This document shows positions 1 through 3,000 of a stretch of DNA of 64,000 nt, piece after piece; positions within the stretch are counted from its first letter, which is position 1; each line of letters begins with the position of its first letter. Origin of the DNA: Escherichia coli (GTDB taxonomy: Bacteria > Pseudomonadota > Gammaproteobacteria > Enterobacterales > Enterobacteriaceae); assembly GCF_030013205.1 (NCBI RefSeq), contig NZ_CP122648.1; one strand, written 5' to 3'. The position numbers are program-made.

Positions 1-3000
1 CTCTGGTGCCTGAACAAATCATCGTTGAATTTACTGAAAGTGAAGTCATATCTCGGTTTGATGAGCTTGCAGAAGCGATTAAATCGCTTAAGGCTGCCGG
101 TATCAGTGTAGCAATTGATCATTTTGGCGCAGGTTTTGCCGGTTTGTTACTCCTGTCACGCTTCCAGCCTGACAGAATTAAAATCAGTCAGGAATTGATT
201 ACCAATGTTCATAAAAGCGGGCCACGGCAGGCAATTATTCAAGCGATCATAAAATGCTGTACATCACTTGAAATTCAAGTCAGTGCTATGGGCGTGGCAA
301 CACCAGAAGAGTGGATGTGGCTTGAATCCGCAGGAATTGAGATGTTTCAGGGAGATCTGTTTGCTAAAGCTAAATTGAATGGTATCCCTTCCATAGCGTG
401 GCCAGAGAAAAAATAATTTTCAGCACATTCTTTCACATGATTTCAGTAAATCATCGTGAAAATGAATACGTTATGTTTAAATTTAATCCACATTAAAAAT
501 AATGTTTCATCCAATTTAGCTGAAATCTTATTTATACTTTGTACAATTTTAGCGTATATTGTACAAAGTATTATTGGGTCGTGTACAGGCGACGGAGATT
601 TGTGACCGCAAGGAGGAATTGTGGCTTATTACAGCATTGGTGATGTTGCTGAACGTTGCGGGATTAATCCTGTCACTCTCCGGGCCTGGCAACGCCGCTA
701 CGGTTTGTTAAAACCACAGCGCAGTGAAGGCGGACACCGACTCTTTGATGAAGAAGACATACAACGCATCGAAGAGATCAAGCGTTGGATAAGTAATGGC
801 GTCCCTGTAGGCAAAGTTAAAGCATTACTGGAAACCACCAGCCAGGATACGGAAGATGACTGGAGCCGCCTGCAAGAAGAGATGATGTCAATTCTTCGTA
901 TGGCTAATCCTGCCAAACTACGCGCGAGAATTATTTCACTGGGTCGAGAGTACCCGGTAGATCAATTGATTAATCATGTTTACCTTCCTGTTCGCCAGCG
1001 TCTCGTGCTTGATCACAACACCTCCCGCATTATGAGCAGTATGTTTGACGGCGCATTAATTGAATACGCAGCAGCCTCGCTTTTCGAAATGCGCCGTAAG
1101 CCCGGTAAAGAAGCCATTCTGATGGCGTGGAATGTTGAAGAGAGAGCACGATTGTGGCTGGAAGCATGGCGTTTATCATTGGCAGGATGGCATATTTCTG
1201 TCCTTGCTGATCCCATTGAAGCGCCGCGCCCGGAACTGTTCCCGACGCAAACATTGATTGTCTGGACAGGCATGGCACCAACGAGAAGGCAAAACGAACT
1301 TTTACAACACTGGGGTGAGCAAGGTTATAAAGTCATCTTTCATGCCCCCTAATTTCACCTTTATCCCGCCCCTTAGACAGAATCTTATAATCTGAACCCA
1401 CAACAGCGTTTGTACCGGAGCTGGTCCGTTGCAAAATGCTCACCGGGAGAATTCAGGTAATCCCCCTTTCACACTTTGTACATATCACAGCCAAAGGACA
1501 GACCAGATTGAAGTGGTAAAACCGATCGTGCACACTACGCAGTCTCACAACTAACAAGAGGTTATTATCCTGATGGATCAGGTTGTTGTTTTTCAAAAGA
1601 TGTTTGAGCAAGTGAGAAAAGAGCAAAACTTCTCCTGGTTTTATTCAGAATTAAAACATCACCGTATTGCACATTACATTTATTATCTGGCTACGGATAA
1701 CATCAGAATTATTACTCACGATGACACGGTTTTGTTATTAAGAGGAACCAGGAACCTGTTAAAAGTTAGTACGACCAAGAACCCTGCTAAAATAAAAGAG
1801 GCAGCATTGCTTCATATTTCCGGAAAATCTACATTTCGGGAATACTGTTCAACACTGGCAGGCGCTGGCGTTTTCCGGTGGGTTACTGATGTTAATCATA
1901 ACAAACGCAGTTACTACGCCATTGATAATACGCTTTTATATATTGAAGATGTAGAAAATAATAAACCATTAATCTAGCTAAAGTTGGATGCTTAAAAAAT
2001 GCTTCATGATTCAGTAAGGCATTAGCATAATGGAAATAAAAGTGCAGAGACTATTCATATGGATGAGTAATACTATCTTTTTATTGCCACCCATAAATAA
2101 TCACCAGATCAATACTATCAACTTGATATTTGAAATGTGATCACTTGACTTTTGATACGTTATTTTATAGCGGTTAACATATTTATAAATAAATATCCTC
2201 CGGCATAGCCGGAGGTTTTTCAAATGCGCCTATAAGGCTCTCTTACCAGCCGCGCCCTAACAGGCGCACACGATCTGACATTTGCATCCAACTTCGTTAC
2301 TTACGGCCCGTAAACGGGCTGCCCGGATAGGGAATCGATAACTGCTCTCCCATTTTATCCTCTTCAAGCTGGTGCTTTATGTAATCCTGTATCTTCGCCG
2401 TGTTCTTACCCACTGTATCGACGTAGTACCCTCTGCACCAGAACTCCCTGTTCCTGTATTTGAATTTCAAATCACCAAACTGCTCGTAAAGCATCAGACT
2501 GCTTTTCCCTTTCAGATATCCCATAAACCCGGATACGCTCATTTTAGGCGGGATCTCCACAAGCATATGGATATGATCTGCACAGCATTCAGCTTCCAGA
2601 ATCCGTACGCTTTTCCACTCACACAGCTTTCTCAAAATACTGCCTATTGCTCTACGCTTCTCTCTGTAGAACACCTGTCTTCGGTATTTTGGCGCAAAAA
2701 CCATGTGATATTTACAGTTCCATCGGGTGTGCGCTAAGCTCTTTTCGTTCCCCATTGGGACCCCCTTTTGATTTCTTGTTTGACACTTGCAGTTGCCAGA
2801 CCGCAAGGTGTTTTAACAAATCAAAAGGGGTTTTAATAACTGGCTCAAAGCTGAAAGCTTTCCGGAACCCCCAGCCTAGCTGGGGGTTTTCTGTGCACAA
2901 AAACAACGGGCGTGTTATACGCCCGTTTCAATATTTAACACATGTAGAGATTACATGTTCTTGATGATCGCATCACCAAACTCGCTGCATTTCAGCAGTT

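Follow-up and report, generated by a model that had tools for sequence, protein, structure and literature searches.

What is missing between icd and ycgX, and is it missing for one reason or for two? IraM links the PhoPQ low-Mg2+ signal to stabilization of RpoS, and around its gene E. coli K-12 MG1655 carries the order icd, e14 (15,204 bp), icdC, iraM, ymgK, ymgL, ycgX, bluR, bluF. The DNA analyzed here (a stretch of 64,000 nucleotides, hereafter the window) comes from a pig-associated strain of the swine O139:H1-type lineage. A sequence-only reading of the window located phoPQ within it (confirmed; Table 1), noted that both the e14 prophage and any iraM-like open reading frame (ORF) were absent from the icd–ycgX interval, and tied the second absence to the first. 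We asked whether that tie holds and, if it does not, how iraM came to be absent.

The icd–ycgX interval and its empty attachment site

Read from left to right, window positions 1–6000 carry the features listed in Table 1 and, beyond icd, rluE, nudJ and mnmA. The stop codons of ycgX and icd enclose 973 bp (1978–2950), so that the spacing of about 970 bp reported earlier, like its coordinates and sizes, is correct. Positions 1–2189 align with K-12 from bluF to ymgL at 98.3% identity, positions 2899–5324 align with the K-12 icd terminator, icd, rluE and nudJ, and the segment in between (2190–2898) has no K-12 counterpart. None of e14, icdC, iraM or ymgK was found in the window, where homology to e14 is limited to icd itself. 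For iraM in particular, a tblastn search with K-12 IraM against all 64 kb (word size 2, E-values up to 100) gave a best E-value of 0.14, which is chance level, and blastn with the 815-bp K-12 iraM-ymgK segment against the same 64 kb (also at word size 7) gave nothing significant, in agreement with the claim that the interval holds no iraM-like ORF.

Table 1 Features of the window that bear on the icd–ycgX interval (positions are those of the window)
Feature	Position	Strand	Evidence or remark
bluF, 3′ part	6–416	+	
bluR	621–1352	+	
ycgX, left border of the interval	1573–1977	+	Pfam DUF1398, 1.3e-47; inside the block 98.3% identical to K-12 bluF-bluR-ycgX-ymgL
ymgL, small-protein gene (36 aa)	2030–2140	+	Pfam PF23691 YmgL, 2.6e-22
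Possible IS200 x IS200 crossover stretch (scar; exact position indeterminate)	2187–2881		In-silico deletion
IS200C insertion sequence	~2189–2899	-	~711 nt; K-12 homology breaks off at 2189/2899
Terminator-like hairpin in the right end of IS200, downstream of tnpA	2197–2215	-	Terminator scan
tnpA, Y1 (HUH) transposase (152 aa)	2297–2755	-	Pfam Y1_Tnp, 9.7e-38, 129 bits (cut-off 23)
IS200 left-end hairpin and tnpA 5′ UTR (Rfam STnc490, RF01405)	2765–2888	-	146 bits (gathering score 56), E 3e-31, full-length match
icd intrinsic terminator segment	2899–2946	-	Hairpin 2905–2927 and T-run; terminator scan
icd, intact ORF (416 aa), no prophage inside	2951–4201	-	Aligned with K-12 icd and icdC
phoP	8878–9549		In window
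phoQ	9549–11009		In window

The 210 bp that follow ycgX had been described as AT-rich non-coding DNA. They are indeed AT-rich (29% G+C at 1978–2189 against 51% for the whole window), but they are not non-coding, as they contain ymgL. This short ORF scores 78.7 bits against the Pfam family (cut-off 27), its product agrees with K-12 YmgL at about 30 of 36 residues (counted by eye), and the gene is annotated in the same place in sister genomes (ymgL/WP_019842521.1) and in K-12 (b4739), where the YmgL protein has been detected via epitope tagging (PMC6001520). By family match and annotation, the ORF is thus the recognized ymgL gene and a member of the YmgL family. The related statement that tnpA is the sole ORF of at least 60 aa in the interval holds in spirit rather than literally: mechanical translation yields three more, of 121 aa (2372–2737, plus strand), 105 aa (2647–2964, plus strand) and 64 aa (2712–2906, minus strand), of which the two longest matched no Pfam family. 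The 121-aa and 64-aa ORFs lie entirely within IS200, and the 105-aa ORF starts in IS200, crosses the icd terminator and ends 14 nt into the icd 3′ end. An Rfam scan of positions 1300–4500 for an RNA gene missed in the AT-rich stretch returned only STnc490, the 5′ UTR of IS200. Promoter-like sites at 1900–3000 scored no better than in shuffled sequence, leaving the two hairpin terminators as the only informative result of the promoter and terminator scan.

The prophage attachment site in icd is empty, as the sequence-only reading had proposed. The gene is unbroken across the point that corresponds to the K-12 e14 junction (3115/3116), the attachment core ATGCTGCGCCA used by e14 and phage 21 is present on the minus strand at 3105–3115, and the stop codon is followed by a terminator of the chromosomal type found after K-12 icdC, not by the e14 type. 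The icd 3′ end is present once, and behind it come the terminator, IS200 and ymgL. Such a state is the usual one: among 5,424 E. coli genomes, the median copy number of this end is one per genome. The predicted terminator consists of a nine-pair stem (2927–2905, minus strand) directly after the stop codon and then GTTTTT, and its T-run is intact despite IS200 beginning right behind it. Compared with the K-12 icd/e14/icdC arrangement and with lambdoid phages that integrate in icd (e14, phage 21), the window has the same attachment gene and the same module of 165 nt plus terminator that these phages duplicate; it differs from K-12 in having no prophage and in an icd 3′ allele that is neither of the e14 nor of the K-12 icdC type.

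This allele had been taken for the ancestral, non-e14-substituted version. The second half of that description stands: the allele is ~85% identical to the e14 copy over the 227 nt aligned, and the C-terminus of the encoded protein differs from the substituted, e14-type end. The label “ancestral” is not supported. Of 5,430 matching records, only 24 reach at least 99% identity over the 217-nt 3′ allele, most lying at 90–95%, which rules out a common, presumed ancestral allele. The nearest relative is the icd′ copy of phage 21 and related lambdoid phages (95.8%, against 93.1% for K-12 icdC), and the TGC-AGC codons of phage 21, together with Lys at position -3, are also found in the window icd. 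Several icd-integrating phages have made a mosaic of this end of the gene. The window icd is 100% identical to the icd of two lineage members, ETEC4068 and ETEC4079.

An IS200C element at the icd terminator

The sequence without K-12 counterpart is an insertion sequence of the IS200/IS605 family, IS200C, as judged by its transposase type, its size, its hairpins and the lack of a target duplication. RefSeq sister genomes contain an identical element, labeled there as an IS200C family transposase, and tnpA is annotated at the same coordinates in L002, L003 and L005. The ends of the element are ambiguous by up to 3 nt owing to flanking A runs. Its 711-nt length was measured on an independent insertion in ETEC6333, whose empty site is window position ~29926. 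Neither the comparison of that filled site with the empty window site nor the comparison of the empty K-12 site with the window revealed a target duplication, the A-run ambiguity being all that remained. The window holds a single IS200C copy, in a lineage with ~20–30 IS200 copies per genome.

In itself the element is unremarkable, sharing with IS200 of Salmonella and E. coli a Y1 transposase, a length of ~710 nt, subterminal hairpins, the absence of inverted terminal repeats and of target duplication, and the STnc490 motif. What stands out is where it sits, at terminator T-runs, and that it has been duplicated to either side of iraM. In the window, the left (tnpA-upstream) end touches the T-run of the icd terminator. 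A clean target rule was sought from three insertions at this locus and set aside: simple insertion of 711 nt accounts for the ymgL-adjacent copy and for the ETEC6333 case, and the others do not fit it. The iraM-proximal copy is one base off what plain insertion into ETEC4068 would give, and in L004 the tandem IS200 junction departs from a perfect head-to-tail unit. A literature search on IS200 target preference yielded nothing directly usable.

Sister genomes and the probable loss of ymgK-iraM

We compared the window with 18 complete genomes of its lineage that match it at ~100% over flanks of 24 kb and 25 kb. None of the 18 carries e14 at icd, and all 18 carry ymgK-iraM at 99.9–100% identity. 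Because iraM lies outside e14 in K-12 and every one of these e14-free sisters retains ymgK-iraM, the absence of iraM is, by this comparison, an event separate from and unrelated to the absence of e14, and the tie drawn between the two in the sequence-only reading does not hold.

The sister genomes show two configurations. In 11 of them, one IS200C lies beside ymgL at exactly the site seen in the window, followed by ymgK, iraM and icd. In the other seven (ETEC4079, ETEC4067, ETEC4069, ETEC4070, ETEC4071, 1748 and K_EC180), a second IS200C in direct orientation separates iraM from icd and sits at the matching point of another copy of the icd terminator. This second copy was seen directly in ETEC4079 and K_EC180 and was deduced for ETEC4067, ETEC4069, ETEC4070, ETEC4071 and 1748 from a coordinate offset of 4,612 bp, as compared with 3,902 bp in genomes with one IS200C. 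The two terminator copies form part of a pair of imperfect direct repeats of ~46 bp, each comprising the icd terminator hairpin with its surroundings, that bracket ymgK-iraM in K-12 and ETEC4068, one beside icd/icdC and the other beside ymgL; they match at 40 of 46 positions and start with 16 identical bases. The terminator segment of the window (Table 1) is the sole remaining copy of this repeat and is of the icd-proximal (T1) type. The closest relative of the window is ETEC4079, with zero differences over the 24-kb and 25-kb flanks and the highest bit scores, and the genomes ranked 2–5 in the 25-kb flank search likewise all carry two IS200C copies.

Against ETEC4079, window positions 1–2189 show 0 mismatches to the left flank, and positions 2187–6000 are 100% identical to its second IS200, the terminator, icd and the sequence onward. 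Furthermore, in-silico removal of 1,570 bp from ETEC4079 reproduced window positions 1–6000 exactly at each of 695 successive crossover positions within IS200. Taking together the structure of the window, the sister configurations and this exact match of the predicted deletion product, all of which are shown, we infer recombination between IS copies as the cause. It is thus probable, with a fair margin of doubt, that ymgK-iraM was lost through a recent IS200 x IS200 deletion in an e14-free strain of the swine O139:H1-type lineage. The parent would have resembled ETEC4079, with two direct IS200C copies bracketing ymgK-iraM; RecA-type homologous recombination between both copies would have removed 1,570 bp (one IS200 and the 0.86-kb ymgK-iraM segment) and left one IS200C against the T-run of the icd terminator. 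The event is represented by one sequence, and lineage flanks of this kind joined by the deletion occur in no genome of a collection of 5,426. As in other IS-mediated deletions between direct repeats, two identical direct elements flank a short unique segment in the proposed parent, and the product keeps one element and the outer flanks. In contrast to the general case, IS200/IS605 family members transpose rarely and make no target duplication, so that the scar carries no diagnostic duplication, and a second, far shorter repeat pair could here yield the same product.

That shorter pair underlies one of two further routes, since the product sequence would be alike for a crossover between IS copies, a crossover within the 16 bases of the terminator repeats and a collapse by the assembler. 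A real deletion could have arisen in a parent with one IS200C (ETEC4068-like) by short-homology recombination or slippage between the ~46-bp terminator repeats, removing ~860 bp. Both K-12 and the lineage have the repeats, with the similarity described above; a simulated ETEC4068 crossover at 16 positions (window 2900–2915) gives window 1400–4300 exactly; and a clean ymgL-terminator-icd junction of like form, free of IS200, is seen in 1,039 genomes. Such clean junctions in phylogroup B2 may, however, reflect an ancestral single terminator instead of deletions; usable identity is 16 nt as opposed to ~695 nt for the IS pair, and the five closest genomes by SNPs all carry two IS200C copies. With homology ~40 times longer and the nearest relatives of the two-IS type, we favor recombination between the IS copies and regard the short-repeat route as rather unlikely. 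Less likely still is an assembly artifact, in which the true locus would read IS200-ymgK-iraM-IS200 and two identical 711-nt elements would have been collapsed, with the 859-bp unique segment dropped. A repeat collapse would take out precisely the segment that is missing, no other lineage genome has the deletion, and the window equals ETEC4079 everywhere compared except for the 1,570-bp deletion and the choice of product allele at one IS200 SNP. On the other hand, the contig reads through an element present in ~20–30 copies per genome, which points to long-read or hybrid assembly, a method that spans 2.3 kb with ease, and unrelated complete genomes, LH85-a and MS14384 among them, have the ymgL-IS200-icd arrangement as a real configuration.

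The sequence-only reading implied something different again, namely a pristine site in a lineage that never had e14 or iraM and whose icd 3′ end is original. Many E. coli do have a single terminator with neither iraM nor IS200 (Nissle 1917 and ATCC 11775 are examples from B2), and outgroup species have no iraM-like sequence after icd. Yet this explanation is already contradicted by the 18 of 18 sisters with identical or near-identical flanks that carry ymgK-iraM, and it sits poorly with an IS200 at the same site as in those sisters and with an icd 3′ allele that is rare (24 records) and phage 21-like, and we consider it highly improbable.

Under the favored deletion between IS200C copies, a further question is whether another anti-adaptor of the same family could be present in the strain. 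IraL is 59% identical to IraM (PMC4045071) and would therefore be detected by the IraM search of the window. In CFT073, iraL sits in the potB island (PMC4045071), an island that is absent from the window, where potABCD is contiguous (13731–17542). Each of the 18 sister chromosomes has exactly one iraM-family locus, as determined by a blastn search able to find paralogs of 60–80% identity, and it is this same locus that is deleted in the window. Given sister chromosomes without a second iraM-family locus and a window without the potB island, the strain, judged from its sisters, most likely has neither iraM nor iraL, and it would lack the PhoPQ-controlled IraM route to RpoS stabilization at low Mg2+. 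Together with its sister ETEC4079, from which its locus differs only by the 1.57-kb deletion, such a strain would make a convenient near-isogenic pair, usable to probe the contribution of this connector in a porcine pathogen background. Otherwise, the event would be one more routine case of gene loss through an IS element, at a locus already known to vary.

iraM across E. coli and the origin of the cassette

Absence of iraM is ordinary in the species. The K-12 iraM-ymgK segment occurs in 3,942 of 5,426 complete E. coli genomes, ~27% being without it. The clean ymgL-terminator-icd (or icd-remnant) junction of the 1,039 genomes mentioned above, with neither iraM nor IS200, includes Nissle 1917, ATCC 11775, NU14 and ATCC 25922, and IS200 lies at this junction in 279 genomes. 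A more sensitive search left 661 genomes without any iraM-family sequence and found 854 records with only a relative of 60–80% identity. Variable iraM content was already published in 2014 by Hryckowian, Battesti, Welch et al. (mBio), who described E. coli strains that carry iraM alone, iraL alone, the two together or neither (PMC4045071), and the window strain would join their “neither” class. That survey scored presence and absence by BLAST and PCR and placed iraM “on the e14 prophage” (PMC4045071), whereas the present comparison gives the loss at base resolution, as deletion of an IS200-bracketed cassette in an e14-free lineage, and iraM lies outside e14. The locus thus corrects the notion of iraM as part of e14. 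A literature search on iraM, icd and e14 together returned only unrelated papers.

Four outgroups (E. albertii, E. whittamii, Escherichia sp. E1V33 and Citrobacter braakii) share homology with the window through icd and its terminator. Homology ends at window position 2899/2900 in E. albertii, E. whittamii and C. braakii, with unrelated DNA downstream; in Escherichia sp. E1V33 it ends at 2905, where the locus may not extend to the edge. A contig scan of the outgroup loci examined found no IraM-like sequence near icd. These comparisons show the icd terminator to be the edge of the conserved core, and they leave the gain of iraM undated.

Wherever E. coli lacks iraM, its one terminator is of the icd-proximal type. 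In many Stx2 phages an iraM homolog of 72.6% identity lies directly downstream of stx2AB on the opposite strand, and phage 21 carries an icd′ and terminator module right beside attP and int; the two observations allow, without proving, that a mobile element entered at the terminator and left a relic there. Tentatively, then, ymgK-iraM may be such a discrete 0.86-kb relic, flanked in every iraM-positive E. coli by imperfect duplicates of the icd terminator, a module that phages integrating in icd also carry, with IS200C homing to both T-runs and making this connector of PhoPQ to RpoS prone to loss, the iraM-less state of B2 strains being ancestral and iraM itself domesticated phage cargo. We put this composite forward as a possibility that is, on balance, doubtful. 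Outside the chromosome, the relatives of iraM that were detected are exclusively the genes just downstream of stx2AB in Stx2 phages.

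Location of iraM and an iraM relative in Stx2 phages

The iraM gene of K-12 was described as "found on the e14 prophage" in a 2014 mBio paper (PMC4045071). By the RefSeq boundaries of e14 (K-12 locus L001, region 17414-18004), the gene lies 268 bp past the end of e14 and also past icdC, the displaced icd 3′ remnant, and it is present in genomes free of e14; iraM thus adjoins e14 and is not a component of it. We also found an iraM-like gene directly downstream of stx2AB, followed by a nanS-like esterase gene, in many Stx2a and Stx2c phages (Table); this gene is labelled iraM in one record and carries no annotation in most.

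Terminator repeats and IS200C insertion at the icd locus

In iraM-positive E. coli, imperfect direct repeats of the icd terminator (~46 bp, 40/46 identical) flank the 0.8-kb ymgK-iraM segment, and genomes lacking iraM retain a single repeat of the icd-proximal type. Together, these arrangements suggest that ymgK-iraM is a cassette acquired or lost at the icd terminator.

Independent insertions of IS200C place its left end immediately 3′ of the T-run of an intrinsic-terminator hairpin, a pattern seen at both icd-locus terminator copies as well as at the ldtC/bhsA terminator in ETEC6333. Coupled with a tandem pair of IS200 copies at the icd site of strain S1-JOR-02-A (L004 ~2290-3710), this recurrence suggests that terminator T-runs serve as a favoured, reusable IS200C target.

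The two direct IS200C copies of ETEC4079 (L005), the closest relative of the window, differ by one base (A at position 6613, T at 8183) located in the left-end hairpin loop. Given that the window element has T, as does the icd-proximal copy, the proposed recombination between these copies deleting ymgK-iraM would be confined to the 695 positions left of that base.

Coordinates of iraM-like, terminator-repeat and IS200C features
Feature	Location	Strand	Remark
iraM-like gene	L006 (Stx2a phage Stx2_EH2201) 4001-4324	minus	72.6% DNA identity to iraM
Terminator repeat pair	L001 (K-12) 17583-17629 and 18445-18494
Terminator repeat pair	L002 (ETEC4068) 3001-3046 and 3861-3906
Terminator repeat	window 2899-2946		sole copy in window
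IS200C site at icd terminator	window 2899
ldtC-bhsA intergenic IS200C site	window ~29926		empty
ldtC-bhsA intergenic IS200C site	L017 (ETEC6333) 23928-24638		occupied

The icd 3′ end and its terminator

The icd 3′ allele of the window lineage (window 2951-3115) is rare, matched at ≥99% in 24 of 5,430 records, and shares phage 21's specific synonymous codons (TGC AGC, Cys-Ser) and a terminal ...IIKNM. These features hint at an earlier exchange between the icd 3′ end of this lineage and an icd-integrating lambdoid phage, although the lineage now holds no prophage there. In Nissle 1917 (L009 2700-5297), an icd 3′ remnant lies just beyond the ymgL-terminator junction, with a sitA-bearing element after it, an arrangement matching phage 21 (L007), where sitAB lies beside the icd′/attP region; icd in B2 strains therefore often harbours a sit element resembling that of phage 21.

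Within the icd terminator hairpin, the central 7 nt are inverted between strains (TGTTATA versus TATAACA) while the stem is the same, as compared at window 2905-2927, positions 3006-3028 of another genome (L003) and XJ6.1 (L010). The difference is a small inversion polymorphism of the hairpin loop.
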